From an uncultured Planctomycetales bacterium (GTDB lineage: Bacteria > Omnitrophota > Gorgyraeia > Zapsychrales > Aceulaceae): a DNA stretch of 64,000 bases. The stretch covers positions 75,002 to 139,001 of the forward strand of contig CAZYOA010000002.1 in the NCBI GenBank assembly GCA_964648665.1. The letters are read 5' to 3'. The notes under the pieces are model-generated. The model made no database searches and had not been told where the DNA came from. It was given only the letters and a program-made list of their open reading frames with translations. This document shows, piece after piece, positions 1 through 49,614 of this stretch (position 1 is its first letter; the number at the start of each line of letters is the position of its first letter). A program made the position numbers and the translations under genes.

Positions 1-606
1 AGATTGATCGCTAGCAAGCCCACCTTGAATAGTGACTGCCTCTATCGTAACAGGAATTTCCTGAGAGAAAGTTACTATGTTAATGACTCTACCTAAAAGC
101 TGGGCATCAATAATAACATCTTCTGGATTTCCAGAAAGACCAATAAGGTTTATTGGTGTTGTTATATTTAAGCGTTCGTTATAAGTTCCTGGCATGATGT
201 AAATTGTATCGACCCCACTTGATAAATCAATGGCATGCTGAATTGTGGCAAAAGCTGTTTCAGGAGTTAGCCCATTATTTGAATCATTGCCAGACGCAGA
301 AACATAGTAATTGGCTATGATGATGTCTGTGAGTTCTAATTTTTCATTGGCAAGATATGCCTTCGTACCCTCTAAATATTCTCTTATAATTTTCTCAGCA
401 GATTTTTCATCAACAGTAAACTCTGCTTCAATTTTATTTTTGTCTTTTTTAGGAAGAACGTTACGCAATTTAATTTTTTGTGTAATTTCATTTTCTTCTT
501 TTTCCGGTTGAAAGAATTTTGAAGATTGTCCAAACGAAGACGTAAAACTTGTCATAACAAATGTTGCTATGATTACTGCGGTGATTGATATTCTTTTTCT
601 CATCAT
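1..606 (-). CDS. Exported right-handed beta-helix (pectate-lyase fold, DUF1565-like) protein, first 202 codons; the gene runs off the window start
   Basis: Absent from the ORF track because there is no stop in the window. Manual minus-strand translation from ATG 606 gives MMRKRISITAVIIATFVMTSFTSSFGQS (signal-peptide-like), then NYYVSASGNDSNNGLTPETAFATIQHAIDLSSGVDTIYIMPGTYNERLNI. That is the SxxGxDxNxGT..PFxTIQxA and GxY pattern typical of beta-helix proteins. AAGGAGAG SD lies 2 nt upstream of the ATG. Confidence 0.6.
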   Translation of the reverse strand, partial: MMRKRISITAVIIATFVMTSFTSSFGQSSKFFQPEKEENEITQKIKLRNVLPKKDKNKIEAEFTVDEKSAEKIIREYLEGTKAYLANEKLELTDIIIANYYVSASGNDSNNGLTPETAFATIQHAIDLSSGVDTIYIMPGTYNERLNITTPINLIGLSGNPEDVIIDAQLLGRVINIVTFSQEIPVTIEAVTIQGGLASDQS

Positions 607-643
607 GTCTCTCCTTTTTAAGGGCCAAATTTTACCTTAAAAT

Positions 644-787
644 AAAAAAATCTTTATTCTCAATAACCGAAAATAAAGACTTAAAATATTTTTTATATTC
701 TTTCGGTAGTTCAGCCCTCTGTATCTATAAGATACAGAGCTGTAGCTTTGCGTGCTTGCCTTACGACAAGGTTGCCTTTATCAAGAA
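644..787 (-). promoter_or_regulatory. c-di-GMP-I (GEMM-I)-like riboswitch, copy A: aptamer ~700-787, intrinsic terminator ~644-679
   Basis: Minus-strand read: UUCUUGAUAAAGGCAAC-CUUGUC-GUAA-GGCAAG-CACGCAAAGC-UA-CAGCUCUGUAUC-UUAUA-GAUACAGAGGGCUG-AACUACCGAAAG. This is followed by UCUUUAUU-(13 nt)-AAUAAAGA-UUUUUUU, an SD and the ATG at 606. The order of conserved blocks (GGCAA, GNRA-capped hairpin, ACGCAAAGC, bulged hairpin, CUACCGA) matches GEMM-I as I remember it. Confidence 0.7.
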
Positions 788-911
788 TGCGCTTAACGCT
801 TTCATACAAAGAACGAAATTTCTTATCCTTAGAAAAGATAGCACATAATACTTACAATGTAAGGGGTTAAAGCTATTTTTATGAAAGCGCTTTCTTTTTT
901 TAGAATAATTT

Positions 912-947
912 TATAGAAAAAGGCCGGGTTAAAATCTAACCCGGCCC
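912..947 (-). terminator. Rho-independent terminator (GC-rich hairpin + U-tract) after the gene relic
   Basis: Minus strand: GGCCGGGUU-AGAUUUU-AACCCGGCC followed by UUUUUCUAUAAAA. The stem is 9 bp and perfect (922-930 / 938-946). Confidence 0.65.
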
Positions 948-1082
948 AAATTATATATTCTTTAAGAATCTGCTGAATTGTTAAACTGTAATTTTCAGAG
1001 ACTTTCTTTGTAATTATCCTATGTAGAAATCTTTATTTTAACATTCTTCTAATTTTTATGATTACTTCCTGCCCTCTATATT

Positions 1083-1265
1083 TTAATCAATATCAATATA
1101 ATCATTTTTCTTCATAGAAAACAAATACGTTCGACCGGCCTCAAATTGTCCAATTTCATCAATCCAGACACCATCAACTTTTTCAATATATTTTTCACCC
1201 TGTATATCCTCGACATGCCAAATAGCATCATTATCTGGGTCAATCAATTCAGCTATTGTATCCAT
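1083..1265 (-). pseudogene. Relic of the C-terminal domain of a subtilase-type paralogue (60 codons)
   Basis: MDTIAELIDPDNDAIWHVEDIQGEKYIEKVDGVWIDEIGQFEAGRTYLFSMKKNDYIDID matches the last 60 residues of the 1476-aa protein at 5856-10286 in 53 of 60 positions (counted by eye). The frame stays open upstream to about 1400 with decayed similarity (ESFYAGLQRPDGNA vs ELFSGYNFIGFLADKNA). There is no other start and no SD, and it lies directly after the upstream gene's terminator. Confidence 0.7.
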
Positions 1266-1417
1266 CGCATTTCCATCTGGCCTTTGAAGGCCAGCGTAAA
1301 AGGATTCATTTGCGTATTTTCTTCTTTTGTTGTCTGATTTTCTAAATTCATAATATTGTAAAATTATAACATACTTTCGAGGAAAGGTTAATTTAGAAGA
1401 AATATTTTATTTTATTA

Positions 1418-1520: not shown

Positions 1521-4500
1521 TCATTGATCCGTTGAAGTTCCGATAAAATTCTGCTGTATGTCATTTTGAATATTAGAGATATTTAAAATCGAAGGTTCAA
1601 AGGTGTGTCCCGGAGCTTGGGGAGTTAATGTTATATTTGAACCTGGGTAGGCCAGGTATGCATAAAATGTTCCAGACAAAAAAACCTCACCAGTTCCTCC
1701 GGTTGCGCTTAAACTGATACCCGGAATAGCGAAGTAATTATTTGTTATAGTTCCTGAAACCATGTAAGCTTGAAGGGGTAAATTGCAAGAAGAAGTAACT
1801 TTAACATGATAGCCTTTGCCGGGTTTCAAAGATCCGATTTCATTAATCGATTGGCCATTTACTAGGCTAAGGGAATTATTATCTTCATCAACAGCTTGCA
1901 CAAAAACATCAGAGTCAATTAAAGGCTGAAATATCGCAGCAGCATCTATTTCATTTATTAATGGAAATCCAATAATATTCCATCCCTCGTTTAGAGTTAA
2001 AATTGTTTCATTTGGATCCAATGGAGCTTGATTACCGGCTATAGAAAAATTGACATTAGAATTCATCTTAATCTGATATCCTTCATTTATGTTCATTTCT
2101 CCAATAGTGTCAATATTGTAATCTGGCCAAATTACGCCTATATGATCATCTTTAATAATTTCAACTTGATTAATAATAGGATTAAGAATATTCGCTAAAC
2201 TCATATCATCGCATACTATGTTAAAAGAAATTAAATTCCACCCTTCTTTTAACTCAAAAAATTGAGAAGAATCGTAGGCACTAAAGTTTTGAATAACATT
2301 TTCTGGGTTAGCTTGAAGGATTGCGCTTTCCGGATCAAATATATAATCTTCAAAATTGGGTGTAACTGTCCAAGTTGTACTCCATGTCGAATTACCGGGA
2401 AGATCGAAAGAATAATATCCCTGGTTATTAGTTGTTGCATGAAATTGCCGAGAATAATTAGGGCTAGTTGCAATAACGGAAACATATTTTAAAGGTTGAC
2501 CATTCTTCAAGATAAATCCAGAAATCCGAAAAGCCAGTGTCACACAAACCTCGACCAATTTTTTATTTTCTGCATTCAGTTCTCCGTCAAAAACATTAAC
2601 TAACAAATCATAGGAACCTGTCTCTAAAGCTTTATTTGTGGTTATCGCTCCAGTGCTAGAATCAATTGCAAAAAACTCTTCTTCATTGCCTGATTCAAAA
2701 AAGTAAGTTAAATCTTGATATATTCCATCATCAAGAGCCTCTACATCAAAAACGTAACTGCCGATGTTTGCTAAAGTAGTCATATGCTTGAAACCTGTAA
2801 GTGTATCAAAATATGGAGGATCGTTGACTAGCTTTACTGTAATTATCATAGATTCAGAATCTTCTAAAATAGGTGTGCCATTATCCGAAACATTAAATGT
2901 TATCGAATGATCACCTGTTTGATTAAAATTTGGTGTCCAGCTAAATATTTGAGTTTCAGTGTTAAAAGTTGCACCTTCAGGTAAATCGTTTGCTGAAAAT
3001 ATTAAAATATCCTCAGAATTTGGATCAGTTGCTGATAGCGCAAATTCAATTGTATTTTCAGCCATGCATCCCTTGTTGCCAATAGGGCTTAGTATTGGTC
3101 GACTATTAAATTCAGAGAAATTGAAACGATATTCAGGGTCTCCCAATAAATTTGTGGTTAAATATACATATCTATAGCACTCATCCATTGCACTCGAAAT
3201 TAGTCCATTATTCTTTTCATGACTATAAGAATTTAACCTGCCAAGTGACTTTTCCGCAGGACCGCTAACATTGTTAAATGCTCCATCCCAAAACCATCTA
3301 CCAAATGTTTGAGATGCTCCATTTGTTGAATAAGCAGAAAACCATCCAAAGCGACTATTCATAACTGTTGCAAAAGCTCCTGTTATCGGTGAAGAAGTAA
3401 GCAATTTTTCTGAGATCGAATCAGTGTTGAGAGTCGTTGTGTAGGGATTTTCATTGTCAAAAGCTCCTGAATAGCATCCGTGCGAATAAATGAATATTGG
3501 TCTTTGATTGTCTAAATCCGAAACATCATCTAAGCTCATTTTCATGACCATTGTATTAGTGGCGTGGCCTGTGTGGTTAATATAGAATGCCCCTTCATTA
3601 ATTCTTGTCATTACTTCATCCATATTCCATTGATATTCAGGGGGGCTGTTTGGTGATCCTGCGGGAGGAGTATCGCAAAGCATATCAACTTCTTCTGGGT
3701 AATATGCTTCAATAAATCCAGAAGTTCCAGAGGGAATAGATCCAAATTTAATTTCTTCTATTTCAGCGATTGCGTATTTATATATTCCATAGTAAAGTCC
3801 TGCATATTCTCCTAACATTAAAGGATCTAAGCGTTCATTATTTGGTTGAGCGAGAATAGTTTTTTGAACAAAATTATCAGCTTCGGTTATACTATCTACA
3901 GGCGCTCGTCCAACAAAAACATCTGAAAAAAGATCAATGTAAATATTGATATCGTCAATTTCCATAAAAGAATTATTATTGTTTGAATCGAATCCTCCGT
4001 CTAGGTTTGAATAGTACAAATCAGATGGGATCTCTGTTTGTCCAAAAGCTGCAGGACAAGTCCCTAAATATCTAACTGGTACAATAGGTAGCTCTGTTTG
4101 TCCTCCTGCCAATGATTTATCCGCATCTCCACCAAGTAAAACGTATTCTGTAGAAAGTTCTTGATAGGCGTATCGAATATAATTTCTTATTTTTGCTGCC
4201 TTATCATTAAATTGATTAAATGATCCGCAAGTGTCTCCCCAATTATAAGGACCCGTGCAACTATAATCAGAGTCATCGTAAATATCTTCTACTGTGACGA
4301 CACAAGCTGAGATCGGATTTGTAAGTCTACTTTCTTTGTAATCGGCAAACACCTGAAAAGAAAGTGCAAGATTTTCATCTGTTATGATGAGGTATTGGCA
4401 TTCCTCTCTTGATGGATCCATAGGGTTGCGATCTATCGGATAACTATCTAAGATATATGATTTAATTTCTCTTTGATTTTTCGGTAAGTTTTCTAAAGCC

Positions 4501-5378
4501 GTGCTTTTATCAACTATTTTAGAATTTTCCTTTTTGGCATTTTGTTCATTGGTATTGGCTGTAATATCTGATAAAAATTTATCTAGAATTATTTCTCTGT
4601 CTGTCTGCTTTCCTCGATATCCATGTTCGATAGGCGCAGCTTTTGGTTTTAAAGTTATAGTTATGGTTTTATAATATGAAATTTTGCCATTTTCTGGAAT
4701 ATATTCAATTGGGCATAAGTTAAATGTATAAAAAACAAATCCTCTGTCGACTTGTTTGGCAGGGTTCGTATATGTTCGTTCAGGATATTTATTTTTTGAT
4801 AGATAAATCATTTCATTAGGCATTGCGGATGAAACATCGAAGCCCGCATCGATTAATTTTTGTTCCGGTAGAATAGGAAGCTGCTTCTCTCCATAACTGA
4901 GCTTATGTTCACTGGAGAGCGTTACGCGCTCGCCAAGAGTAATGGTGTAGCTGTCCAGTTTTGTGGCAAACGGTAAAAGAACTTTTGCGTATCGAATCGG
5001 AATTTCTGGTTTTCCTTCTTCGCTTTGAATTTGAGTCGCTGGCATGCTAATTTTATTATAACCATTTTCAAGAGGAATAAAAGTTGGTTCATCAAAAGTG
5101 TATACAATGGTAATTGTCTCACTCTTTCCGGTTTTTTTAGGAATTCTTGAAAGATCTAAAAGATTTTTTAATGGATCAATGGACGATTTTTCTTCATCTT
5201 TTATATATTCCTCAAATGGCAAGATTTTTTCAGATTGCTCAGTTTTTTCAGATTTAGATGCCAAATTGCGACTAAAGGCGCTTGTTGCTTTTCTTGTCTG
5301 TGATAAAACTTGATTTGGCGCTAAAAAGCTTAAAATTATGAGCAACGCTAAACATTTGGTTGATAAATTATTTTTCAT
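1521..5378 (-). CDS. Exported multidomain cysteine peptidase, C25 (gingipain)-like, with cadherin-like / Ig-like modules and two C-terminal GWN repeats
   Basis: Signal peptide MKNNLSTKCLALLIILSFLAPNQVLSQ. Clan-CD His/Cys context INHTGHATNT ... RPIFIYSHGCYSGAFD resembles the C25 NYxGHG ... ACxxGxF pattern. Cadherin/dystroglycan-type modules: SATDPNSEDILIFSANDLPEGATFN..FSWTPN and FFAIDSSTGAITTNKALETGSYDLLVNVFDG. CarboxypepD_reg-like module: ISGFILKNGQPLKYV..TNNQGYYSF. GGGAG SD precedes the ATG. Confidence 0.6.
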   Translation of the reverse strand: MKNNLSTKCLALLIILSFLAPNQVLSQTRKATSAFSRNLASKSEKTEQSEKILPFEEYIKDEEKSSIDPLKNLLDLSRIPKKTGKSETITIVYTFDEPTFIPLENGYNKISMPATQIQSEEGKPEIPIRYAKVLLPFATKLDSYTITLGERVTLSSEHKLSYGEKQLPILPEQKLIDAGFDVSSAMPNEMIYLSKNKYPERTYTNPAKQVDRGFVFYTFNLCPIEYIPENGKISYYKTITITLKPKAAPIEHGYRGKQTDREIILDKFLSDITANTNEQNAKKENSKIVDKSTALENLPKNQREIKSYILDSYPIDRNPMDPSREECQYLIITDENLALSFQVFADYKESRLTNPISACVVTVEDIYDDSDYSCTGPYNWGDTCGSFNQFNDKAAKIRNYIRYAYQELSTEYVLLGGDADKSLAGGQTELPIVPVRYLGTCPAAFGQTEIPSDLYYSNLDGGFDSNNNNSFMEIDDINIYIDLFSDVFVGRAPVDSITEADNFVQKTILAQPNNERLDPLMLGEYAGLYYGIYKYAIAEIEEIKFGSIPSGTSGFIEAYYPEEVDMLCDTPPAGSPNSPPEYQWNMDEVMTRINEGAFYINHTGHATNTMVMKMSLDDVSDLDNQRPIFIYSHGCYSGAFDNENPYTTTLNTDSISEKLLTSSPITGAFATVMNSRFGWFSAYSTNGASQTFGRWFWDGAFNNVSGPAEKSLGRLNSYSHEKNNGLISSAMDECYRYVYLTTNLLGDPEYRFNFSEFNSRPILSPIGNKGCMAENTIEFALSATDPNSEDILIFSANDLPEGATFNTETQIFSWTPNFNQTGDHSITFNVSDNGTPILEDSESMIITVKLVNDPPYFDTLTGFKHMTTLANIGSYVFDVEALDDGIYQDLTYFFESGNEEEFFAIDSSTGAITTNKALETGSYDLLVNVFDGELNAENKKLVEVCVTLAFRISGFILKNGQPLKYVSVIATSPNYSRQFHATTNNQGYYSFDLPGNSTWSTTWTVTPNFEDYIFDPESAILQANPENVIQNFSAYDSSQFFELKEGWNLISFNIVCDDMSLANILNPIINQVEIIKDDHIGVIWPDYNIDTIGEMNINEGYQIKMNSNVNFSIAGNQAPLDPNETILTLNEGWNIIGFPLINEIDAAAIFQPLIDSDVFVQAVDEDNNSLSLVNGQSINEIGSLKPGKGYHVKVTSSCNLPLQAYMVSGTITNNYFAIPGISLSATGGTGEVFLSGTFYAYLAYPGSNITLTPQAPGHTFEPSILNISNIQNDIQQNFIGTSTDQ

Positions 5379-5404
5379 GCCATTCTCCCTTTAAAATTTA
5401 TTTA

Positions 5405-5543
5405 TCAATAAAAAATCCTTATTCTCGATAAACCGAAAATAAGGATATATTTTTCCTTTCGGTAGCCTCAGCCCTCTATGTGCTTGCATAGAGCTGAACA
5501 GCTTTGCGTCCTTGTCTCACAACAAGTTTGCCTTTATCGAGAA
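5405..5543 (-). promoter_or_regulatory. c-di-GMP-I (GEMM-I)-like riboswitch, copy B: aptamer ~5455-5543, intrinsic terminator ~5405-5446
   Basis: Minus-strand read: UUCUCGAUAAAGGCAAA-CUUGUU-GUGA-GACAAG-GACGCAAAGC-UGUU-CAGCUCUAUG-CAAGCA-CAUAGAGGGCUG-AGGCUACCGAAAGG. This is followed by AUCCUUAUU-(14 nt)-AAUAAGGAU-UUUUUUAUU, a GGGAG SD and the ATG at 5378. Confidence 0.75.
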
Positions 5544-5659
5544 AATAAAAAAATATTTTATAAAAGAACATGTATTGTTTCTAATTTAAGTATATCTTAT
5601 AAATTTACAAAAACAATGGATAGGCAAGATTTTATGAAAGCGTTTTCTTTTTTTATGAG

Positions 5660-5702
5660 TTTTTATAAAAAAATAAGTCGGGTTAAGAATTTTAACCCGG
5701 CC
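5660..5702 (-). terminator. Rho-independent terminator after the S8 subtilase gene
   Basis: Minus strand: GCCGGGUUAA-AAUUC-UUAACCCGAC (one G-U pair), followed by UUAUUUUUUUAUAAAAA. Confidence 0.6.
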
Positions 5703-5855
5703 CAAATTACATATTTTTTTTAAAAATCTACTGAATCGTTAAGTTGCAATTCTCATCGACTTTTACAGCTATCTCCAAGCAAAAAATTGTTATTTTAATG
5801 TTCTTTTGATTTTATGACTGTTTCTTGCCTTCTATCTTTTTAAAAGAAATTCATT

Positions 5856-8800
5856 TTAATCAATATCAATGTAATCTGTTTTTTTCATAGAAAATAAATA
5901 TGCTCGACCAGCTTCAAACTGTCCGATTCCATCAATCCAGACACCATCAACTTTTTCAATGTATTTTTCACCTTGCACATCCTCAACATGCCACAGAGAA
6001 TCATTGTCAGGATCGATTAGCCCGGCTATGGTATCCATCGCATTTTTATCTGCTAAAAATCCAATAAAGTTATAACCTGAAAAAAGTTCAACATTTGTTT
6101 GTCCCAAGTACAAAGTTCCTGCAAGTGTCATGGTCGTAGCAGAATTCAACTGGATTACAACACCATTTCCTGGGCTTAAAGGTTCCGTAAAATTATTTAC
6201 TCCCGAACCTGGATTAAAGAAGTTATAATTTCGGTCATAAGCCATCTGCAAATTTCCCTCTGCCACTAATGGTGCTAGCAAATCTTCTATTAGCATACTT
6301 TCGGCTTGAACTGTTGGAGCAAAAAAATTCATACCCGCATCAAATGTCAAATTTTGTGTAATAATGGCCACTTCGTAGCGATAAATCAAATCAAATGCAT
6401 TTGAGACTTTTACTTGATAACCTTTTCCCGGCTGCATTTGTCCAATTGTGTTGATGTTCGTTTCCGGCCAATAGACATGTCCTTGCCCATCTTGAACGAC
6501 AATAATATCCTCTTGATGTCCTGCAAAGACATCTTCTATATTAAAAGGTTGATCCAGCGGATACCCAATCATTTGCCACCCTGGAGACAATGTAACAGTA
6601 GTAGGTAAAGATACAGGATTAGCCACCAAAGAAAGAGTGGCTTGCTCATTGACTTTAACTTGATAGCCTTCCTTGACATCAATTTCGCCAATCGTATTGA
6701 TTCCATATTCTGGCCAAAAAACATGTCCTGAGTCACCCTTGATAATAACAAGGTTCCCTTGAGAAATAAGCGGCGCAAAAATACTCTCAACCGACATATT
6801 TACTGGTTCGACATTAAAAGAAATCATATTCCATCCAGCATTAAAATGTATCTCTTGGGAAACAGCCGACATGCCTGTGGAGTAATTCTGAACAATATCC
6901 TCATTGACGGATGTGTAATATATTGGCGTGAGTGGATTAAAAGTGTAGCCTTCTTTGAATGTTTCTACTGTTCCAGACCAGTCCTGTTGAACAACAAAAC
7001 GATATGTTCCATCAGCTCCTGTGGTAATAGGTGTTATATTGGGGTCGTTGGTAGTCACCAAAACCCCTTCCAAAGGGGCCCCATTTTCTGAAACAACACC
7101 TTGAATATTATATCGGGAAAGAATAAATGCATTTCCCGAGCCGAAAAAGTTTCCTAATCCATAAGCATTTCCAATGAGCATTTTACTCTCTGATAGCGCA
7201 ACTTGAGTACCAAACGAACCCAATTCGTTCTCAGGAGGAACAATCCGAGTTGTCTCTGTCTCTGGCCATGCCCCAGATGAATTACGGGTATACAAATAAG
7301 TTGCATTTCCTAAGGACCCTCCGTAAGACCCTACAAGAATTATGTCATCTTCTATTGCAACAGATCGACCAAAACATCCACCTTGTATACCATCGCTGGG
7401 TAGAATCTTGCGTGTTTCATTCTCGGGCCAGTTACCATCGGAATTCTCAACAAAAATATAAGCTGCTCCTAAATTTGAAGCAATAGAATCATCTGTGTGA
7501 GCTCCTACGATGGCGGTATTTCCAGATAAAGAAACTTGGGCTCCAAATGAACTTTGAGAACTACCGTCACTTGGAAGTATTTTTTGTTCTTCTTCCCATA
7601 AGGCAGTGTTTTCGTTTAATTTAAAAATATAAGCAGCTCCAGCATTGGTTCCGTTTGTGTCGTCGTTAAAATCTCCGATAACAAGCGTATCTTCTTGAGT
7701 TGAAATTGATGTTCCAAATTGATTACTATTCTTGCTGTCATTTGGAAGTATTATGCTATTAGCAATGGGAGGAAATGTACCTTGAGCATTTCGTTTAAAT
7801 ACATAAACAGCTCCTGTTGAAGCGCCAGATATAGATGAGTTTCCATCTCCAATAAAAAGTGTATCTTCTATTAAAAAAACAGAACCTCCAAAATGAAAAC
7901 TAGCTTTTTGTTGATTGTTCCAATTTATTCTTTGTGTATAGGTTTCTGGCCACGTACCGTTTAGGTTTTGTTCATAAATATAAACATAAGAAAAGCTTCC
8001 GACAATAATGGTGTTATTTGAAGCACTGACAGATAATCCATAAACAGTCGCCTCTGGATTAGGATTTACTAATGCCTTGCTTTCAAAGTGAGGCCAATTG
8101 CCATCTTCATCCTTGGAATATATATAGGCGCTACCGAAATAATTATTTGTAGAAGCGCAGCCTATAACAGCCTTATCTCCTTGTATAGCTATTTGATAAA
8201 ATCCAAACCCACTACCCGAAGAAACATCAGATCCAATTATTTTTCCGTTTTCCCAATTGTTAACAACTCTTTTGTAATCCTCGTAAACATCACCAGCCTG
8301 ACTGGAAACTGACAGCTTCAAGTATAGTGGTGTTGCTTGCTCCAAGACATTAAGCGTTGCTAAAATAGGATATTCTATTTCACCCCCAGTTCCTGCCTCA
8401 GGGTATTTCTCGCCAAATGTGATATTATCTGCAACCATCCAAGGCCCCTCTAGAGATAAAGCATATTCCACTGTATAAGAGTTAAAAGACTCGCCGTAAG
8501 CAACACCTCTTATTTCAATAATTTCATTTTCAAAATATTGCTTAAAATTTTTCGGAGAAAATATTTTTGCCGCTAATGGCGTTGAAACATCTAAAGCTGC
8601 ATCTGCATTTAACATTCCATGCCCAAATGTTTCATCAAATCCTGAATCGCTAAAATTAACAGCTGAAAATCTTAGAGCAGATCGCATTTGCTCAGGAGTA
8701 AATTCAGGATGCAAAGCCCTCATTAAAGCCAATGTGCCAGCTACATGCGGAGCCGCCATAGATGTTCCATTTGATCGATAATAAATATCGTCTACAATGT

Positions 8801-10286
8801 GTTCTCCATTTTCATAAAAATCAGTATTTCTTGCTCTTAAAGATAGGATTTCAACTCCGGGAGCGGTAACATCAACCTTCATCCCAAAATTTGAAAAGTC
8901 AGCTTTTTCAGAATTAGAATCAATCGCCGCGACTGCGATAACGCTCTGCAGATTCGCTGGCATAAAAGCACTTGTTTCAAAATCGCTATTGCCCGCACTT
9001 GCAATATTCACACATCCACTCGCTTGAGCAAGGGCAAATGTATCTTCAAGAATTTGGGAGTATCCTCGCCCAGACCAAGAATTGTTTAATAGATCAGCAC
9101 CATTTTCAACAGCAAAATATATGGCTGAAGCGAGATCATCCTCATAGCCGTCACCTTGTGAATCTAGTCCTTTGATTGCCATAATTTCTGCTAAAGGAGC
9201 AACTCCAATGATGCCTATTCCATTTTCTTTTGCCGCGATTGTTCCTGCGCAATGCGTTCCATGTCCGTGATCATCCATAGGATCTGTGTCTTGATTAACA
9301 AAATCATATCCGTATTCATTTTGATCGTTCTGCCACATGTTTTCGAAAATATCAGGATGAGTGTAATCTACGCCAGAATCAATAACAGCAACAATGACAC
9401 CTTGACCCTTTGATTTTGCCCAGGCACCATTATCTTGCAATGGATCTCCCGTATGAAGAAAGTCTGGTGTGAGGCCATACATATCTCTATAGCTATTGCC
9501 CCAGCTACCAGAGGATGAATAATAAGGATCATCTGGTTCATAAAAAGCATAATATTTCTTAACATAATCAACAAATTCAACATTGTCATCTGATTCATAC
9601 ACTGCTTTTATTTGTTCAATATTGAAAGATTTGTTGTTAAATTCCATAACAAAAATAGAAGAAAGTCTGTGAAGATATTTTACCTGAAGATCAGCATTTG
9701 CGCTTTGTGAGCGATTATAAAATCGTTTATTCATATTTATAACTTTTTCTGTGAGCTCAAGCTCTTTCTCTTTTTCAAAATCAAGAGCTATCTTAGAAGT
9801 TAAAGGGCCTGTAAAAGAATCAATTGAATGTTTTAAATCTAAATCAATTAAAGGCTTTATTTCTTTAAGGTCGTATTTCTTATTTAAATTATCCAAATCA
9901 CTATTGCCTGTAATCTGAGAAAATCCATTCTTTTGACTTGCAAGTTTCTCAGCAACAACAGAAAGCCCACTTCCCTCTTTAAAACGGATAAATAATCGAT
10001 TGTCTCTATACTCAACTGTGTCTGGCGCTTTCATTACAGCAGGAGTTTTGCCAATTTTATTATAGCTATTTTCTTTTTCTTGCTGATGTTTTAATAATTC
10101 ATGAAATTCTTTAAGGTGTAGACTAGATTCAAAATTATCCTTAAGAGGCTTAAAAGATAATTCTTTAATAGAAAACTTGCTTTGTCCGTTTGCCAAAACA
10201 AGCTCAGGTAAAAAGCAAGCTCCTAAGATAAAGATAGTTGCTGTTAAGCAAAGAAATATTGTTATTGCATTTCTTTTATATTGCAT
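5856..10286 (-). CDS. Exported S8 subtilisin-family serine protease fused to a 7-blade FG-GAP-like propeller, a CarboxypepD_reg-like module and four C-terminal GWN-type repeats
   Basis: N-terminal hydrophobic signal or anchor: MQYKRNAITIFLCLTATIFILGA. Catalytic triad motifs: VAVIDSGVDYTHPD, HGHGTHCAGTIAA, GTSMAAPHVAGT. Seven repeats of type FGxSVxxxxxxxxVGxxxxxxxxxxGAAYIFxxxxxGxWPE. Confidence 0.85.
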   Translation of the reverse strand: MQYKRNAITIFLCLTATIFILGACFLPELVLANGQSKFSIKELSFKPLKDNFESSLHLKEFHELLKHQQEKENSYNKIGKTPAVMKAPDTVEYRDNRLFIRFKEGSGLSVVAEKLASQKNGFSQITGNSDLDNLNKKYDLKEIKPLIDLDLKHSIDSFTGPLTSKIALDFEKEKELELTEKVINMNKRFYNRSQSANADLQVKYLHRLSSIFVMEFNNKSFNIEQIKAVYESDDNVEFVDYVKKYYAFYEPDDPYYSSSGSWGNSYRDMYGLTPDFLHTGDPLQDNGAWAKSKGQGVIVAVIDSGVDYTHPDIFENMWQNDQNEYGYDFVNQDTDPMDDHGHGTHCAGTIAAKENGIGIIGVAPLAEIMAIKGLDSQGDGYEDDLASAIYFAVENGADLLNNSWSGRGYSQILEDTFALAQASGCVNIASAGNSDFETSAFMPANLQSVIAVAAIDSNSEKADFSNFGMKVDVTAPGVEILSLRARNTDFYENGEHIVDDIYYRSNGTSMAAPHVAGTLALMRALHPEFTPEQMRSALRFSAVNFSDSGFDETFGHGMLNADAALDVSTPLAAKIFSPKNFKQYFENEIIEIRGVAYGESFNSYTVEYALSLEGPWMVADNITFGEKYPEAGTGGEIEYPILATLNVLEQATPLYLKLSVSSQAGDVYEDYKRVVNNWENGKIIGSDVSSGSGFGFYQIAIQGDKAVIGCASTNNYFGSAYIYSKDEDGNWPHFESKALVNPNPEATVYGLSVSASNNTIIVGSFSYVYIYEQNLNGTWPETYTQRINWNNQQKASFHFGGSVFLIEDTLFIGDGNSSISGASTGAVYVFKRNAQGTFPPIANSIILPNDSKNSNQFGTSISTQEDTLVIGDFNDDTNGTNAGAAYIFKLNENTALWEEEQKILPSDGSSQSSFGAQVSLSGNTAIVGAHTDDSIASNLGAAYIFVENSDGNWPENETRKILPSDGIQGGCFGRSVAIEDDIILVGSYGGSLGNATYLYTRNSSGAWPETETTRIVPPENELGSFGTQVALSESKMLIGNAYGLGNFFGSGNAFILSRYNIQGVVSENGAPLEGVLVTTNDPNITPITTGADGTYRFVVQQDWSGTVETFKEGYTFNPLTPIYYTSVNEDIVQNYSTGMSAVSQEIHFNAGWNMISFNVEPVNMSVESIFAPLISQGNLVIIKGDSGHVFWPEYGINTIGEIDVKEGYQVKVNEQATLSLVANPVSLPTTVTLSPGWQMIGYPLDQPFNIEDVFAGHQEDIIVVQDGQGHVYWPETNINTIGQMQPGKGYQVKVSNAFDLIYRYEVAIITQNLTFDAGMNFFAPTVQAESMLIEDLLAPLVAEGNLQMAYDRNYNFFNPGSGVNNFTEPLSPGNGVVIQLNSATTMTLAGTLYLGQTNVELFSGYNFIGFLADKNAMDTIAGLIDPDNDSLWHVEDVQGEKYIEKVDGVWIDGIGQFEAGRAYLFSMKKTDYIDID

Positions 10287-10615
10287 AATTTTTTTCCCTT
10301 TTTAAATGTATTAAATAAATTAAATTGTGTTTATTGAAATTTAGAGTTTCTATTCTTTGTAATTTTGGAATAAAAGCATCCATTTCTTAATATTTAACTT
10401 TCTCTATATATTTCAATAAATCGAGTTTATTGCTTTGCTCTTTATGATTATCTTGTTTTATTCTTTAAGAAGTTTGAAATTATAACACAAAAAAATCAAA
10501 TAACAAATTTTATAAAGGATACCATGTAAAATCGAAAAAACAATGTTATTTTGAGTTTTTCTTGAATAATTTTAATTTTATTTTTAAGTTGAGGTCTATT
10601 AGAAGAATGATTATG

Positions 10616-10644
10616 TTGACAGCTTCAAAGGTGCACTTTATAAT
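10616..10644 (+). promoter_or_regulatory. Consensus sigma70-type promoter positioned for a leaderless transcript
   Basis: TTGACA (10616-10621), 17-nt spacer, TATAAT (10639-10644). Only 6 nt (ggcaaa) separate the -10 box from ATG 10651, and there is no SD. Confidence 0.55.
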
Positions 10645-10650
10645 GGCAAA

Positions 10651-11379
10651 ATGAGAAATTCAGATATAGCTATTTCTATAAAAAAATTAAGTAAGTTTTA
10701 TGGGTCTTTTGAGGCGCTTAAGGAAATTTCCTTTGATGTTGAGCGCGGAAGCTTTTTTGGGTTTTTAGGGCCTAATGGGGCTGGAAAAACAACAACAATT
10801 AATGTTTTGACTGGACTTTCGAATTATAAATCAGGATCTGTTAAAATTTTTGGATATGATGTGACATCAGAATATCAGAAGACAAGGCCTTTGATTGGGC
10901 TTTGTGCGCAAGATTTTAATTTTGACCCCTTTCTTCCTTTAGAAAAAATGCTTATTTACCAAGCTGGCTATTTTGGTATTCCTGAAAAAATAGCAGAAAA
11001 AAGAGCTGCTGAACTTTTAGATCGATTTCAGCTTCTTGACAAGAGAAATGTTAAGCATCGCGCTCTTTCTGGTGGAATGAAGAAACGTCTTTTGCTCTGT
11101 CGAGCTCTTATTCATGATCCTGAAATTTTGATTCTTGATGAACCGACTGCCGGTTGCGATCTTGAATTAAGATTTCTAATTTGGGATTATTTAGCAGAAT
11201 TGAACAAAGAAGGAAAAACAATATTTTTAACAACACATTACATGGAAGAAGCTGAGAAATTATGTAAAACTCTTGGCATTATTCATCAAGGAAATATTGT
11301 TCGTATCGGTAATAAAGAAGATATTTTAAAAGATAAAACGCTCCAGGATGCATTCTTGGAAGTTACAAATCATAGATAA
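10651..11379 (+). CDS. ABC transporter ATP-binding protein (ABC-2 / drug-exporter type)
   Basis: Walker A GPNGAGKTT, signature LSGGMKKRL, Walker B ILILDEPT. It is followed 2 nt later by an ABC-2 permease. Confidence 0.85.
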   Translation: MRNSDIAISIKKLSKFYGSFEALKEISFDVERGSFFGFLGPNGAGKTTTINVLTGLSNYKSGSVKIFGYDVTSEYQKTRPLIGLCAQDFNFDPFLPLEKMLIYQAGYFGIPEKIAEKRAAELLDRFQLLDKRNVKHRALSGGMKKRLLLCRALIHDPEILILDEPTAGCDLELRFLIWDYLAELNKEGKTIFLTTHYMEEAEKLCKTLGIIHQGNIVRIGNKEDILKDKTLQDAFLEVTNHR

Positions 11380-11381
11380 AA

Positions 11382-12155
11382 ATGCTTATAAACAACCCCA
11401 TAGGAATCTTAGCTTTATGTAAGCGTGAAATCATGCGTTTTTTATCGGTGGCAACACAAACATTGTTTCCTCCAATGATTTCGTCGACTTTGTTTATTTG
11501 TATTTTCGGCTTAGCTTTAGGAAAACGTATTGATTTAAGCGAAAGTGGGATTACTTATCTTGCTTTTATTATTCCTGGCTTAATGACCATGAATGCCATT
11601 ACAAGTTCTTATGAAAATGCCAGTTCTTCTTTATTTATATCAAGATGGCATAATCATGTTCAAGAAATTTTGCTCTCTCCTTTGTCGTACTTTGAAATGG
11701 TTTTAGGAGTTTTGGTCGGAAGTCTTGTTCGTTCACTTTTAGTTGTAAGTGCAGTTCTTACAATTTCTCTTATCTTTAATCCGATGCCAATTTCTCATCC
11801 ATTTTTAATGATTTATTTCATGATTATTATTCCTATTATCTTTTCGTGCGCTGGTATGTTGGCAGCGCTCTGGGCTGAAGATTTTAACATGCTAACAATG
11901 TGGAATACTTACTTGATTATGCCGTGCACTTTTTTAGGTGGAGTTTTTCATCCTATTCACTTGATTCCCAAGCAATTTCAATTCTTTACAAAATTAAATC
12001 CGATGTATTACTTAGTCAGCGGAATGCGTTATAGTGTTATTGGCGTATCTGATGCGCCAATTATTTATAGCATAATCATTTCTTTGGTGTTGGCTTTAAG
12101 TATTTTTCTTGTAACGGTTTACTTGTTCAAAATCGGATATAAACTGAGAACATAA
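11382..12155 (+). CDS. ABC-2 type transporter permease
   Basis: 257 aa with about 6 hydrophobic helices. Tightly coupled to the upstream ATPase. Confidence 0.75.
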   Translation: MLINNPIGILALCKREIMRFLSVATQTLFPPMISSTLFICIFGLALGKRIDLSESGITYLAFIIPGLMTMNAITSSYENASSSLFISRWHNHVQEILLSPLSYFEMVLGVLVGSLVRSLLVVSAVLTISLIFNPMPISHPFLMIYFMIIIPIIFSCAGMLAALWAEDFNMLTMWNTYLIMPCTFLGGVFHPIHLIPKQFQFFTKLNPMYYLVSGMRYSVIGVSDAPIIYSIIISLVLALSIFLVTVYLFKIGYKLRT

Positions 12156-12156
12156 A

Positions 12157-13410
12157 ATGGATTTTCTTACTCAAAAAGTTTTAGATCGGCAAAAGGAAAT
12201 TTATAAATGGATTCGTAATTCTGAGTGCATGCGAGAGCTTCCTCTTTATTCGTCTGTTGATATTAGAGATTCTGGCTTCAAAATGGCTGTCGTCGATACG
12301 AATCTTTTTCCAGCTGGTTTTAATAATATTTGTTCTCACGGCATTGCAGGTGCAACGCTTTTTATTAAAAAAGCAATTTCAAAAAGAGTTAGTCCTGGAA
12401 AAGATATTTTGATCATTGCCGAAGAGCATACTCGAAATACTTGGTATCTGGAAAACATTCGAGTCCTTAAGGAAATTATTGAGCTTGCTGGATATAATGT
12501 CACAATTGCAACCTTTCTAACCGTTCAGCCTAATTTTTGTGAAAATGCTAATGCTGTTGAATTGCTGACGGCTACAGGTAAGCCAATTAAGATTTATTGT
12601 TTTAAAAAAATTCTTGCAGAAATTAAAACTGGAAATCGAAAATTTGATTTAATTATTTTAAATAATGATTTAACTTCTGGTGTTCCAGACATCTTGCGAG
12701 AATCTGATATTCCAATTTACCCTTCTCTTCAAGCTGGATGGCATGTTCGATCAAAGTTTGAACATTTTAAGCATAATTACGGCTTGATTGAACAATTCTC
12801 AAAAATTATCGATGTTGACCCTTGGCTTCTAACATGTTTGGATGATGTTGTTAGGGATATAAATATTAATGACGAAGCTGATCGTATGCGCATGATGGGT
12901 CATGTAGAAAAACTTTTTGAAAAAATTGAAAAGAAATACAATGAATATGATATTAAAGAAAAGCCGTATATTATTTTAAAATCGGATTCTGGAACGTACG
13001 GAATGGGCGTTGTCCCTATAGAAAACCCGAAAGATATTTTGAATTTAAATCGCAAGAACCGAAACAATCTCTTTAAGGGTAAAAGCGCAAAAATAACTGA
13101 TCGCTATATTTTGCAAGAAGGTATTTCAACAAAATATCATATTAATCAAGAAATTAGCGAAGTCTGCATTTATCAAATTGATAATAATTTAATCGGCGGG
13201 TTTTATCGTTCTCATGGCGCCAAAACCAACCGTGATAATTTAAATTCTAAAGGAATGAATTTTAAGACAATGTGTCCTCATCTTAGAAAATATGGAGATT
13301 GTGGAGTTCATCATGATATGAATATTTTTGATGTTTATCGACTTCTAGGGCGTATTGCTGGTATTGCCGCACACCATGAAGTTCTGCATTTGGAAGGACT
13401 AAAGAAATGA
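12157..13410 (+). CDS. gshA: Glutamate--cysteine ligase (compact, T. ferrooxidans-type GshA family)
   Basis: The N-terminal block RELPLYSSVDIRDSGFKMAVVDTNLFPAGFNN matches my memory of that family. Overlaps gshB by 4 nt (13407-13410). Confidence 0.55.
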   Translation: MDFLTQKVLDRQKEIYKWIRNSECMRELPLYSSVDIRDSGFKMAVVDTNLFPAGFNNICSHGIAGATLFIKKAISKRVSPGKDILIIAEEHTRNTWYLENIRVLKEIIELAGYNVTIATFLTVQPNFCENANAVELLTATGKPIKIYCFKKILAEIKTGNRKFDLIILNNDLTSGVPDILRESDIPIYPSLQAGWHVRSKFEHFKHNYGLIEQFSKIIDVDPWLLTCLDDVVRDININDEADRMRMMGHVEKLFEKIEKKYNEYDIKEKPYIILKSDSGTYGMGVVPIENPKDILNLNRKNRNNLFKGKSAKITDRYILQEGISTKYHINQEISEVCIYQIDNNLIGGFYRSHGAKTNRDNLNSKGMNFKTMCPHLRKYGDCGVHHDMNIFDVYRLLGRIAGIAAHHEVLHLEGLKK

Positions 13411-14348
13411 ATTTTATTTTTTTGATGGATCCGCTAGAAACCATTAAAATTGAAAAAGATACAACTTTTGCTTTGATGCTTTGTGCTTATTTTCGCAAAC
13501 ATCGTGTTTTCTTCTTGCCCGAAGGAAATATCTCAATTAAAAATGAAAAAGTTAATTTTTGTGTAACTGAAGTTATTCCGCAAAAAAATATTAAAGCACC
13601 TTTTATCAAGAAAGAAATAATTCAGCTTACAGAAGACGATGTTGATGTTGTTTTTATTCGAACCGATCCTCCTTTTGATCAATCATATTTGATGAGCACA
13701 TGGCTCTTAGATCGCTTGCCAAAGCGTGTGGTTGTTATTAATAGTCCAAATGGTATTCGAACAGTTAATGAAAAATTATGGGTAACTCGATTTGCATCGA
13801 TTATTCCAAAAACGCTTGTCACTCGCAGTAAGAGTGACTTTATAGAATTTTTAAACGAAGAAAAACAAGCCATTGTAAAGCCAGTTCATCTTTTTGGAGG
13901 AATGAGTATTTTTCATATAAAGCAAGGAGATTTAAACGCCAGTGTTATTTTTGAAACATTAAGTAATTCCGGTGGTCGAGAAGTTATTGTTCAGCAGTAT
14001 ATTCCAGAGGCAAAAGATGGAGATAAAAGAATTTTATTGTTAGATGGTGAGCCGCTTGGCGCGCTTCTTCGCGTGCATTCTAAAGATGATCATCGAAACA
14101 ATTTCTTTTCTGGAGGATGTGCACGCGCGTGCAAGATTAATCATCATGATCAGCGCATTATTCAAATTTTAAAACCACACTTGCGAAGTCTTGGGCTTTA
14201 TTTTGTCGGGATTGATATCATTGGAAATTATTTAATTGAAGTTAACGTGACCTCTCCAACTTGCTTGCAGGAGATAGATCGACTAAATCATGTTGTTCTT
14301 GAGGATCGCGTTATTAATTTTGCTGAAGAACTAACAAAAGTTTATTAA
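13407..14348 (+). CDS. gshB: Glutathione synthetase (prokaryotic ATP-grasp type)
   Basis: Characteristic blocks: MDPLETIKIEKDTTFALML, GDKRILLLDGEPLGA and IEVNVTSPT. Length 313 aa. Confidence 0.8.
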   Translation: MNFIFLMDPLETIKIEKDTTFALMLCAYFRKHRVFFLPEGNISIKNEKVNFCVTEVIPQKNIKAPFIKKEIIQLTEDDVDVVFIRTDPPFDQSYLMSTWLLDRLPKRVVVINSPNGIRTVNEKLWVTRFASIIPKTLVTRSKSDFIEFLNEEKQAIVKPVHLFGGMSIFHIKQGDLNASVIFETLSNSGGREVIVQQYIPEAKDGDKRILLLDGEPLGALLRVHSKDDHRNNFFSGGCARACKINHHDQRIIQILKPHLRSLGLYFVGIDIIGNYLIEVNVTSPTCLQEIDRLNHVVLEDRVINFAEELTKVY

Positions 14349-24747: not shown

Positions 24748-26920
<2,173 letters not shown>

Positions 26921-38929: not shown

Positions 38930-41900
38930 CTACGAATTTTCCTTGTTTGCTACTAATTCTTGAGAAAGCGCGATATCTTCATTAGTGTTTGGTTCATTTT
39001 CATCTAGCCCAAGCAATTGATAAATATTTGTCATCGGTGTAATGCTTATGCTTGCAGGAATCAATCCTGGTAAATCTTGAAGATTCATTCCTTGCCACTC
39101 AACCGGAACGTTAAACTCTATCGACGACGACCCCCTCTTTTCAATATCCAAATATTCAGCATTAAAATCAATACCCCCAACATTAGAAGAAGCTGTTGCA
39201 GAGGCTTGAGAAGAAGCCATGTGTCCTTGAGCCAAAACAACTTCTTGATCTTGCTTCAAAATACTTGGTATCCTTTTCTTGTCTGCAATTTCATTTCTAA
39301 TCGTATAGCTTCCTCTTTGACCGCTTAAGAATTGATCAAGATTATCTCTTTGTTTTTGATTCTTTAAGAAAATAAAGATTTTATTTTTCCCCACTCTTTC
39401 ATAGTCAAATTTCATTTTATTAATAGCATTAATCACATATTTCCTTGAATCAATTTCTAGTCCGAACATATCGTCCCGATAGCTCAATGCATCAGAAAGA
39501 TTATAACGTAAGTCTTCTGCAGTTATGTCATCGCCAATATTTTGACTTTCAATATAAATTTTAGCCATATGCACAAGGCGATTAAAACTAGCTTGGTTCA
39601 TGTTGTCTAAACAATTTTCATCATTTTCATTATAAAAAATTAAATTTTTCTTTACTTCATTTAAAGACTTTATTCGACCAGAAGGTTGATCGTAACTAGC
39701 CATATAAATTTTTTCGAATGCTTTGCCTAAGGATCCTGGCTCAACAATAATCCGGCCATTTTTTTGAGTTTTTCCTGATTGCATAATAATCTGCTCAACC
39801 CCAACACCTTTAATTCCTGCATTATCCCCTTTATAAGACTGAACAATTTCCTGCATTAGAAATTTCAAGATTTTAATATCCGACACAATCTCTCGTTCGA
39901 TACTGTCTCCAAACTTTTGCTTAATTTGAGAAATTTGATTATTAACAATATCAGCATAAAGAACATCTTTTTTCCCTATCGAGATCTCGATTTTCGTCTC
40001 ATATCTACTAGAATCGTTTGATTTTAAAAGAAAACTGATTAAATTTGTACTTGGAGTATGATTCCTTTTATATCTAATCCCTACACATCGTGAATGCGAA
40101 CGAAACGCATTTAATATTTTCTCTCCAGTTTCAATATCTGATTTATCAGCTGAAACAAAAATATCAATATCGTATTTTCCTGGTAAATCCATGTCTCTTG
40201 AAGTTGATCCTTGATTTACAATATCGGTTTTCAAATCTAAATCATTCAATTTTGAGAATATAAAATCACTAGCCTCTTCTCGCCTTTGATTTTCTTTAAA
40301 AAACAATTTTAAACGATTTGATAAATCTGCAATCGAAACTAAAGAATTTTTTTGACTTCTCTGCACTTTTGCTTGAACGCTTAAGCTTATCTTTAGTGCG
40401 CTTAGATCAATATCTGAATAATCCCCTTCTTCAGTGGTGTCTTTTCGAAGTTCTTGGACATCTTCAAAATAATCTAAAAGCGTTTTTCCCTCTACAATCC
40501 ATGGATGCTCAATAAAATCAGCGACTGACTCAAGGCTTTCAGGATCTAATTCTTCTCCTTCATACTTTTGACCAATTTGCACATCAGGAATTATCCTCCG
40601 AGTAGATATACTTTTTCCACTAACTGTCGTAGCTTTTCTATGATATTTACGAATAACCTCAATATTTTCACTCTCATTAAGCAATGCTTGCTGAATGATT
40701 TCTTTATTATCTTGATTTTCCTTGTAATCTGCGCTAATCAAATCAAAAAATCTTTTTGATCCGTCTGTTTGCATCTGTCCAAGCAAAAGTTTTAGATAGT
40801 CACTCTTAAGCCCTGTTTTCTTAAAATCTTTTAAAATATTGATTTGCTGATCAAGAAGAGCTTGAAGATTATTAAAATCTTTTTTATTTATTTCTCCTCG
40901 TTGAAGCGCTTTTAAAATATAAAAAATATTATCTTTTGCAATTCTCTCATATTTTTGCCATCGTAAAATCTTTAAAATATATGAATTTGCTGTTTGCAAC
41001 CCAAAATCGTCTTTCTTTTTCCTCAAATCGCTTTGAAGAAAATCTCCTGCCAAAATACTTCTTTTTCGGGCATATTCTTCTAGCGGATTTCTCCCACGCT
41101 TAGCGTCATAAAACGCTAAAGCAACATTGCGATCAGGTTCTCTTTGTCCTTTAAGTAAAACATTGTCAAATTCATGCAAAGCTTTCGGCCCAAGCCCGCC
41201 TTTAAGGGCATCTTTAGCTTCTCCTCCTTTACGCAAATAATGGAACAAAGCTGATGTTAGGGCATACGATAAATAATTTGCCTCGATATGATCCTGCTCT
41301 GCATAAGCGCGATAAGCACTAGAGATTGTGTTTAAATATTTTGGAACTTTATGTCCGTTAAATTCTTTAAGTTCATTAATTTCTTTAAACCTTTCCAAGG
41401 TCTCAGAAATTTTCTTTTCGCCAAAAATATCAATCAAGAAATTATTAATATTTTCTTCATTCTTTAAAAAATATGAGCCAATCTTACTCTCCAAACTACT
41501 CATTCCATTCGGTACTTTCTTGCTCCCCATATGCTCTTCAACCAAACTTGTTGATAAGCTGACAAGGCTATTTAAAAACACTTCGGATATAATTTGAAGG
41601 ATATATTGAAAATCCTCTTCACTATGTTCAGTCATTTTTCTTAAAGTTGCTGCTGCCGACACTTTTTCTATAGAAGAATCAATATTTGTAGCAGAATAAA
41701 CAAGGGATGACAGATGTATATACTTCTTAAGATGCTCTCTCTTGTCTGCAGCATTTTCATCCAAAATACCTTTGACTCCGTTTCGTCCAATCCATGATAA
41801 AATATGAATAGCTGATTCAGAGTTTTTTAATGCAGATTCTTTGAGAAATTGGTTAATAACAAAAGCAAGGCTATATATATCATTAATATTTTCTATCCAC

Positions 41901-49281: not shown

Positions 49282-49413
49282 TTACCCTCCTGTTTTTAAT
49301 TGTTTGAATCATTTTATCATTAATTAACAACATCACCAACGAGTTTTGAATAAAAAAAGAGCCAGCGCTTTTGAGCACTGACTCTTAAAATAGCAATATT
49401 ATAAATCGCCTTT

Positions 49414-49614
49414 TTATGCTTTTACAACATTTTGGGCTTGTTCACCTTTAGGACCCTGAGTAATTTCAAACTCAACGGCTTGTCCTTCTTCTAAAGACTT
49501 ATAGCCATCTCCTTGAATTTCGCTATGATGTACAAACACATCTTTGCCTTCTTCTGGCGAGATAAAACCATAACCTTTTTGGTTACTAAACCACTTTACT
49601 GTACCTTTTGCCAT
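49414..49614 (-). CDS. cspA: Cold-shock protein
   Basis: [15 protein letters not shown] (RNP1) and VFVHHS (RNP2). Length 66 aa. Confidence 0.9.

Follow-up and report, generated by a model that had tools for sequence, protein, structure and literature searches.

The riboswitch locus

The DNA analysed here, referred to as the window, is a 64,000-nucleotide (nt) stretch of contig CAZYOA010000002.1 (GenBank assembly GCA_964648665.1, positions 75,002–139,001) from an uncultured bacterium of the Omnitrophota. The element under study lies on the minus strand, in the leader of a gene for a secreted Peptidase_C25 protein, and was examined as a probable riboswitch for cyclic di-GMP (c-di-GMP). A first-pass annotation, made by a model from the sequence, had proposed a class-I c-di-GMP (GEMM-I) riboswitch with a terminator at this place. 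The leader that it quoted reads exactly so at 5380–5560(-), and the downstream gene, which it had called C25-like, is matched by the Pfam family of that name. A hydrophobic signal-like sequence is visible at the N-terminus of the C25 protein. Coordinates of the features are given in Table 1; the four strands that could pair alternatively in the leader are numbered 1–4 in the 5′ to 3′ direction, and a helix between two of them is written as, for example, 2:3.

Table 1. Features of the two riboswitch leaders and of the genes that follow them (window numbering; bp, base pairs; aa, amino acids)
Feature	Positions	Strand	Details
c-di-GMP-I aptamer, copy 1	5458–5542	(-)	RF01051, 57.0 bits (gathering score 35), E = 1.7e-8
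P1 5′ strand (strand 1)	5538–5545	(-)	UUUUCU-CG; P1 annotated in the RF03167 structure line
First aptamer hairpin	5511–5526	(-)	6 bp, GYRA-type tetraloop GUGA; compensatory changes at all six pairs in five leaders
Second aptamer hairpin	5464–5503	(-)	4 bp, GG bulge, 6 bp; no tetraloop-receptor motif
Ligand-contact equivalents	5532, 5505, 5462	(-)	G20 equivalent, G 5532; A47 equivalent, A 5505; C92 equivalent, C 5462 (model alignments)
Strand 2	5452–5463	(-)	ACCGAAAGGAAA; C92 equivalent, P1 3′ strand (CG-AA-AGGAAA) and candidate antiterminator 5′ half
Intrinsic terminator	5415–5446	(-)	5′ arm 5434–5446 (strand 3), loop 5428–5433, 3′ arm 5415–5427 (strand 4)
Terminator loop and top of 3′ arm	5422–5432	(-)	UUUAUCGAGAA; perfect complement of the 5′ flank UUCUCGAUAAA (5533–5543)
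U-tract	5407–5414	(-)	UUUUUAUU; closing U at 5415 just before
Shine–Dalgarno sequence (SD) and start codon	5385–5389; 5376–5378	(-)	GGGAG; ATG; 3′ of the terminator
Weak sigma-70-like promoter candidate	5555–5583	(-)	-35 TAGAAA 5578–5583, 17-nt spacer, -10 TAAAAT 5555–5560
Gene following copy 1	1521–5378	(-)	1285-aa secreted Peptidase_C25 protein with He_PIG/Ig-like domains; PF01364, E = 1.3e-47
c-di-GMP-I aptamer, copy 2 (paralogous)	702–786	(-)	GUAA loop; RF01051, 59.2 bits, E = 4.8e-9
Copy 2 terminator and U7 tract	639–682	(-)	15-bp stem 648–682, loop 663–667, -12.6 kcal/mol
Gene following copy 2	1–606	(-)	Signal-peptide protein, DUF1565 (beta-helix) N-terminal region; runs off the window

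Identification and sub-type of the aptamer

The whole window was scanned with cmscan against Rfam 15 at gathering thresholds. Only two matches were returned, both to RF01051 (c-di-GMP-I, GEMM-I). The match in the C25 leader (copy 1) covers model positions 1–87 of 87, is not truncated, and exceeds the gathering score, which was the check that the first-pass annotation had proposed. The sequence blocks on which that annotation had based its call are all present, namely GGCAAAC, the 6-bp hairpin capped by GUGA, ACGCAAAGC, a bulged second hairpin and CUACCGA. Because each sequence-level defining feature tested was found, the leader of the C25 gene was confirmed, at the level of sequence, as carrying a standard class-I c-di-GMP riboswitch aptamer that belongs to RF01051. 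Two antisense open reading frames (ORFs) that cover the two leaders, 5478–5723(+) and 585–848(+), were rejected as genes; they share no protein-level similarity despite their nucleotide homology, and neither has a Pfam match.

Relatives were collected by pattern scans. Among genome representatives, more than 119 GEMM-I aptamers with the same 3′ motif were found in many phyla; two of these are from Omnitrophota, L028 (Omnitrophica bacterium RBG_13_46_9, 3849–3960(+)) and L052 (Ca. Aceula lacicola), and both precede genes for signal-peptide proteins. A metagenome scan with CTACCGAAAG-N(5–35)-TTATTTTCGG gave 76 stretches, 75 of which were discarded as chance matches with no GEMM-I core upstream. 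The one true relative, L168 (contig Ga0307929_1000172, ~9730–13624(+)), has a GEMM-I leader with the platform of copy 1, and the gene behind this leader encodes a secreted Peptidase_S8 + FG-GAP protein (more than 1219 aa) with the same architecture as the product of the S8 gene of the window.

Base pairs were tallied on anchor-based segments of five leaders (the two window copies, L052, L168 and L028). The pairing of both hairpins and of a closing helix, P1, is kept through compensatory changes across this set. In copy 1, P1 is formed by 5538–5545 with 5452–5461. In all five leaders it consists of an inner YG:CG step, a bulge of two A residues and an outer helix of 5–6 bp, the second pair of which is U-A, A-U or C-G and the fourth U-G, U-A or C-G. 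The two hairpins are joined by a GC-AAA-GC linker, and an AAA linker between adjacent hairpins is the rule in GEMM RNAs (PMC1950547).

GEMM RNAs carry either a GAAA tetraloop together with its receptor or a GYRA tetraloop without one, often with a basal bulge; GYRA loops hardly ever occur together with the receptor, and in some RNAs that have them a bulge lies closer to the base (PMC1950547). The Rfam alignment of the window RNA has deletions at the CUAA/UAUG receptor position of the second hairpin and a GG bulge near its base. By alignment, the window aptamers therefore match this known GYRA, receptor-less, bulged sub-type. The sub-type, the P1 helix and the copy at 702–786 had not been described by the first-pass annotation.

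Ligand-contact residues

Contact residues were read from alignments to the RF01051 and RF03167 models. In the Vibrio cholerae Vc2 aptamer, G20 recognises Gα of the ligand and C92 pairs with Gβ, and a G20A change leads to binding of cyclic GMP–AMP (cGAMP) (PMC5888326, PMC6140456). Both window copies and the three relatives have G, A and C at the G20, A47 and C92 equivalents, respectively. The G20 equivalent of copy 1 is the first G of GGCAAAC. The first-pass annotation had assigned it to the G directly 5′ of CAAAC, which is off by one: that residue (5531) is Watson–Crick paired with the C of ACGC in the Rfam structure line and is the Vc2 G21 equivalent. Both positions are G, and the RNA thus has no counterpart of A20 of the cGAMP riboswitches. 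The preference that had been drawn for c-di-GMP over 3′3′-cGAMP stands, as the G20 equivalent is G rather than A and the contact set G/A/C is canonical. From these residues we infer that the ligand is c-di-GMP.

Terminator and expression platform

Directly 3′ of the aptamer, the predicted terminator has a 13-bp stem and a 6-nt loop followed by U6-A-UU, with a free energy of -15.9 kcal/mol that none of 200 shuffled sequences matched (z = -4.31). Its existence and its U-tract had been recognised in the first-pass annotation, in which only the outer 9 bp of the stem were described. The hairpin begins 11 nt from the aptamer and does not overlap it, and its arms are complementary to aptamer strands. 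The SD and start codon that had been proposed were found 3′ of it (Table 1). On the 5′ side, the promoter candidate has 9 of 12 consensus matches and would place the transcription start near 5546–5549, just 5′ of P1. It is downstream of the terminator (5679–5702) of the neighbouring S8 gene, and since that gene ends with its own terminator, the C25 gene needs a promoter of its own.

Alternative pairings of the leader were compared by predicted fold energies, which are thermodynamic and include neither tertiary contacts nor ligand energy. In the minimum free energy (MFE) fold of the transcript lacking the terminator 3′ arm (-33.6 kcal/mol), strand 2 pairs with 5432–5437 and 5442–5445 through ACCGAA:UUCGGU and AGGA:UCCU, giving the 2:3 hairpin. 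This bears out the candidate antiterminator of the first-pass annotation, ACCGAAAGGA with UCCU/UUCGGU. When the terminator is forced to form, strand 2 pairs with 5538–5545 instead. The antiterminator strand thus coincides with the P1 3′ strand plus the C92 equivalent. A complementarity between the 5′ flank and the terminator had also been noted, and UUCUCGAUAAA is indeed a perfect 11-nt complement of UUUAUCGAGAA; this duplex (-11.9 kcal/mol) forms part of the ligand-free MFE fold of the transcript extended to the U-tract. The latter fold, which combines 2:3 with this 1:4 helix, has an energy of -44.6 kcal/mol, compared with -44.0 kcal/mol for P1 + terminator. The corresponding values for L168 are -41.8 and -41.3 kcal/mol. 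As modelled, the copy 1 platform would be a balanced two-state system that ligand energy can tip.

The leader can accordingly be described, on the predicted folds, as a classical four-strand platform in which 1:2 is P1, 2:3 the antiterminator and 3:4 the terminator. The alternative fold pairs the C92 equivalent and both P1 strands elsewhere and so should exclude the ligand; ligand binding should therefore favour P1 + terminator, which would make the element an OFF switch. The OFF logic of the first-pass annotation is upheld in these folds and becomes stronger once P1, with the antiterminator strand as its 3′ strand, is recognised. We thus consider it likely that 5452–5545(-) is a class-I c-di-GMP aptamer of the GYRA receptor-less sub-type that acts, on a transcription-termination platform, as an OFF switch.

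The proposed mechanism is as follows. At low c-di-GMP the intrinsically weak P1 would not hold, and strand 2 would pair with strand 3 as soon as the latter is made, forming the antiterminator hairpin. Strand 4 would then be captured by the free 5′ flank (5533–5543 with 5422–5432), the terminator would not form and the protease mRNA would be completed. At high c-di-GMP, ligand bound at the three-helix junction would lock P1 (1:2), leaving strand 3 free to pair with strand 4, and RNA polymerase would terminate in the U-tract at about 5407–5414.

The predicted 5′-flank/terminator-3′-arm helix

The complement between the 5′ flank and the terminator 3′ arm is also found, with a length of 8–10 bp, in copy 2, L052 and L168. 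Shuffled flanks did as well in 1, 13, 3 and 2 of 1000 cases for copy 1, copy 2, L052 and L168, respectively. It is thus present in four of four Omnitrophota-type leaders and not in Bacillaceae leaders, whose terminators of the 2:3 type show no such complementarity (365–550 of 1000 shuffles do as well). The 1:2, 2:3 and 3:4 pairings account in register for only two of the 11 pairs of 1:4, so the idea that 1:4 arises purely from them was partly rejected; it is further countered by the Bacillaceae leaders, which have the 2:3 design and lack the 1:4 complement. We read the feature as a property of Omnitrophota-type terminators, which would have come to match the conserved 5′ segment. The 1:4 helix could serve as a second lock of the antiterminated read-through state.

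A paralogous copy and the duplicated segment

The second RF01051 match lies in the leader of another gene for a signal-peptide protein, at 1–606(-). The copy 2 riboswitch as a whole spans 639–788(-) and is followed by an SD and by an ATG at 604–606. The DUF1565 protein that it would control is at least 838 aa long in L001. The two intergenic regions with riboswitches align over ~490 nt, and a 60-aa ORF at 1083–1265(-) is 88% identical to the last 60 residues (1417–1476) of the S8 protease. A segment of ~680 nt has therefore been duplicated (~595–1275(-) and ~5370–6045(-)). It carries the 3′ end of the S8 gene, a conserved 3′ segment, the GGGCCGGGTT...AACCCGGCC terminator, the promoter region, the riboswitch and the attenuator. 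Between the 60-aa ORF and the S8 3′ end 30 of 183 nt differ, 22 of them at third codon positions, with 17 synonymous and seven non-synonymous codons; the ORF looks constrained as coding sequence rather than like a decaying remnant. No GEMM-I remnant was found upstream of the S8 gene of the window (10250–10700), even at E-values up to 10.

Three near-identical terminator hairpins of the form GGGCCGGGTT-(6–8 nt)-AACCCGGCC plus a T-run are present at 921–947, 1430–1456 and 5679–5702(-), where they follow the 60-aa ORF, the C25 gene and the S8 gene, respectively; there is no other copy in the 64 kb. The region that separates each riboswitch from the terminator upstream of it includes a conserved box, AAAAAAAGAAA[A/G]CGCTTTCATAAAA (5630–5654 and 877–901(-)). 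The box of copy 2 contains a perfect palindrome, GAAAGCGCTTTC, and could be a promoter element or a protein-binding site.

Comparison with known systems

The window RNA shares with Vc2 and RF01051 the two hairpins joined by AAA, the G/A/C contacts and the position in the 5′ untranslated region of a gene for a secreted protein. Vc2 has a GAAA tetraloop with receptor, whereas copy 1 has GUGA (GYRA) without receptor and an uncultured Omnitrophota host. L028 is likewise of the GAAA + receptor type (CUAAG...UAUG). Its P1 3′ strand includes the SD AAGGAGG of a gene for a 94-aa signal-peptide protein, with 8 nt between the SD and the ATG. By its sequence it would be a translational OFF design without terminator, as stabilisation of P1 by the ligand would mean OFF.

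Ligand-dependent repression of a protease gene has a precedent in Clostridioides difficile, where the class-I riboswitches uniformly act as OFF switches in vivo; one of them, Cdi-1-12, lies ahead of zmpI, which encodes a protease (PMC6200980). As proposed here, the aptamers of Cdi-1-3 (flgB operon) and Cdi-1-12 lower downstream expression at high c-di-GMP (PMC6200980). Cdi-1-3 does so by transcript termination (PMC6200980); the direction was measured there and is deduced for the window RNA. The target of Cdi-1-12 is the zinc metalloprotease ZmpI, while the genes concerned here encode a C25 cysteine peptidase and, in L168, an S8 subtilase, and the phylum differs. Many Clostridia-type GEMM-I leaders (L009, L012, L020, L057, L064 and others) have a T-run directly after the P1 3′ strand, so that the closed aptamer itself would act as the terminator hairpin.

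Comparable platforms are those of Bacillaceae GEMM-I leaders (L042, L048, L079 and L081), in which a terminator with CCUUUCGG is complementary to CCGAAAGG in the same 2:3 design. As in the window, the terminator 5′ arm can pair with the P1 3′ strand, which reads CCGAAAG(G) in these leaders. Their context is of the Bc1 type (PMC11218506). Together with the Clostridia-type leaders, L028 and the C. difficile precedent, they accord with the OFF reading.

In the S-adenosylmethionine (SAM-I, S-box) OFF leaders, a ligand-stabilised P1 sequesters the antiterminator strand and lets the terminator fold. The platform of the window differs from these in that the freed P1 5′ strand also has a complement of 8–11 bp in the terminator loop and 3′ arm.

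Alternative interpretations

The best-surviving alternative, although an improbable one, is that a genuine c-di-GMP-I aptamer works here as an ON switch, with termination prevented because the ligand favours long-range pairing of the 5′ flank with the terminator 3′ arm, which would act as an extended closing stem. That helix does enclose the aptamer like a long P1 and is part of the MFE fold of the full leader; moreover, many GEMM-I representatives were predicted to be ON switches (PMC1950547) and one C. difficile class-I riboswitch is positively regulated (PMC6200980). However, the 1:4 helix takes up the P1 5′ strand and the conserved AUAAA junction, and the C92 equivalent and the P1 3′ strand are sequestered in the accompanying 2:3 hairpin, so that the binding pocket would be dismantled. 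In the ON-type GEMM-I design the terminator overlaps the aptamer (PMC1950547), unlike the terminator 5′ arm found here, and in L028 a ligand-stabilised P1 would hide the SD. The most likely direction of the switch, as judged from the modelled pairings, is therefore OFF.

That a real aptamer regulates mainly through translation or mRNA stability, and that the hairpin and U-tract serve constitutively for attenuation or pausing, is very improbable. Control of translation is known for GEMM-I riboswitches (PMC11218506), and L028 is of the SD-sequestering type. However, 25 nt separate the SD of the C25 gene from the terminator, and the leader showed no anti-SD segment; in addition, each terminator arm is complementary to an aptamer strand, which is not expected of a constitutive terminator.

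We give a similarly small chance to recognition of another ligand, either 3′3′-cGAMP or the unknown ligand of the c-di-GMP-I-GGC class (RF03167). RF03167 and the cGAMP-sensing GEMM-Ib RNAs share the fold and clan CL00126 with the window RNA, the specificity of this fold can be switched by single-nucleotide changes (PMC6140456), and in E-value mode RF03167 is the best match of the clan (52.6 bits for copy 1 and 56.9 bits for copy 2). Assignment to RF03167 was nevertheless rejected. Both scores are below its gathering score of 59 and below the RF01051 scores of the same copies, and its consensus ACGCGAAG, with the defining G at the A47 equivalent, is ACGCAAAG in both window copies, with A at that position. 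GEMM-Ib has A where the window RNA has G, at the G20 equivalent, which speaks against cGAMP.

That the aptamer is a decaying or chance match without function can practically be dismissed: the E-value is 1.7e-8 in the window, the two paralogous copies retain all conserved junction nucleotides while their stems differ by compensatory changes, and, within the duplicated non-coding region, conservation is highest in the aptamer (80% identity compared with 67–69% in the flanks, among which the short upstream terminator hairpin, at 79%, is the exception).

Several observations weigh against the preferred reading, that of an OFF switch acting by transcription termination in response to c-di-GMP. The fold energies have the limits given above, and by the same calculations copy 2 and L052 have the terminator fold as their ligand-free MFE, the 2:3 + 1:4 fold being 3.9 and 4.7 kcal/mol higher, respectively; read-through in these leaders would thus need kinetic control through the order of folding. 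Of 102 natural GEMM-I 5′ flanks, 7–22 give a 1:4 complementarity at least as good, because the helix is directed at UCUCGAUAAAG, a segment conserved throughout the class. The promoter candidate is a weak one, and sites of this kind are no more frequent in the region than in shuffled sequence. No GGDEF, EAL or HD-GYP gene was found among the ORFs of at least 150 aa in the 64-kb window. Finally, the leaders of the nearest C25 homologues (~50% identity; L004, and L005 from the Omnitrophica metagenome-assembled genome (MAG) GCA_028693815.1) contain no GEMM-I match at the gathering threshold, so the link between riboswitch and C25 gene is not conserved by orthology.

Genome context and other features of the window

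A sequence identical to the C25 protein is present in ENA and Logan assemblies, and its nearest named relative comes from a Candidatus Omnitrophica MAG; no relative was found in a protein search of GTDB species representatives. The S8 + FG-GAP gene of the window occupies 5856–10286. The rest of the window is an ordinary anaerobe chromosome with genes for the Rnf complex, aconitases, ThiC and glutathione synthesis. ThiC shares 84% identity with a Ca. Omnitrophica protein and 74% with that of Ca. Aceula meridiana. No thiamine pyrophosphate (TPP) riboswitch was detected in the window at E ≤ 1, the thiC gene being at 24748–26430(-). Its mechanically assigned GTG start overlaps an upstream AhpC-like ORF, and an identical database protein of 538 aa suggests a later start.

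Pfam gave no match (E ≤ 1e-5) for a 2249-aa ORF at 38930–45679(-); large proteins without annotation are reported to be typical of Omnitrophota. For the region 49355–49721(-), in the long leader upstream of a LemA-family gene (48727–49281), the model of the cspA thermoregulator (RF01766; gathering score 78) gave a full-length but weak score of 35.6 bits (E = 1.5e-5). Membership in RF01766 is improbable, but the match points to ~370 nt of 5′ sequence that may have a structure.

Biological implications

GGDEF domains have been reported in giant proteins of Omnitrophota, bacteria described as ultra-small, with PilZ genes adjoining, and a predatory lifestyle has been discussed (bioRxiv 10.1101/2023.11.21.568195). 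Among the papers searched, none links Omnitrophota to c-di-GMP riboswitches. It is conceivable, though in our estimate rather unlikely, that class-I c-di-GMP riboswitches form an Omnitrophota-wide OFF regulon over secreted proteases and surface proteins (C25, S8 + FG-GAP and beta-helix), so that attack or feeding would be switched on when c-di-GMP falls, and that the leaders use a two-helix lock, with capture of the terminator 3′ arm by the freed P1 5′ strand on top of the usual antiterminator. If the shut-off of secreted-protein genes by c-di-GMP were confirmed, the aptamers would mark c-di-GMP-repressed extracellular functions in Omnitrophota genomes, and the leaders would be compact natural OFF switches with a nearly isoenergetic two-state platform. 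Little is added to riboswitch biology as such, since the class, the sub-type, the logic of the platform and protease targets have already been described. For the organism, two adjacent genes for large secreted proteins in the window, together with the S8 protease gene of the related metagenome contig (L168), appear to be repressed by c-di-GMP through their RNA leaders. This is a specific regulatory connection that experiments could readily check, in a phylum where genetics has hardly been done at the bench.

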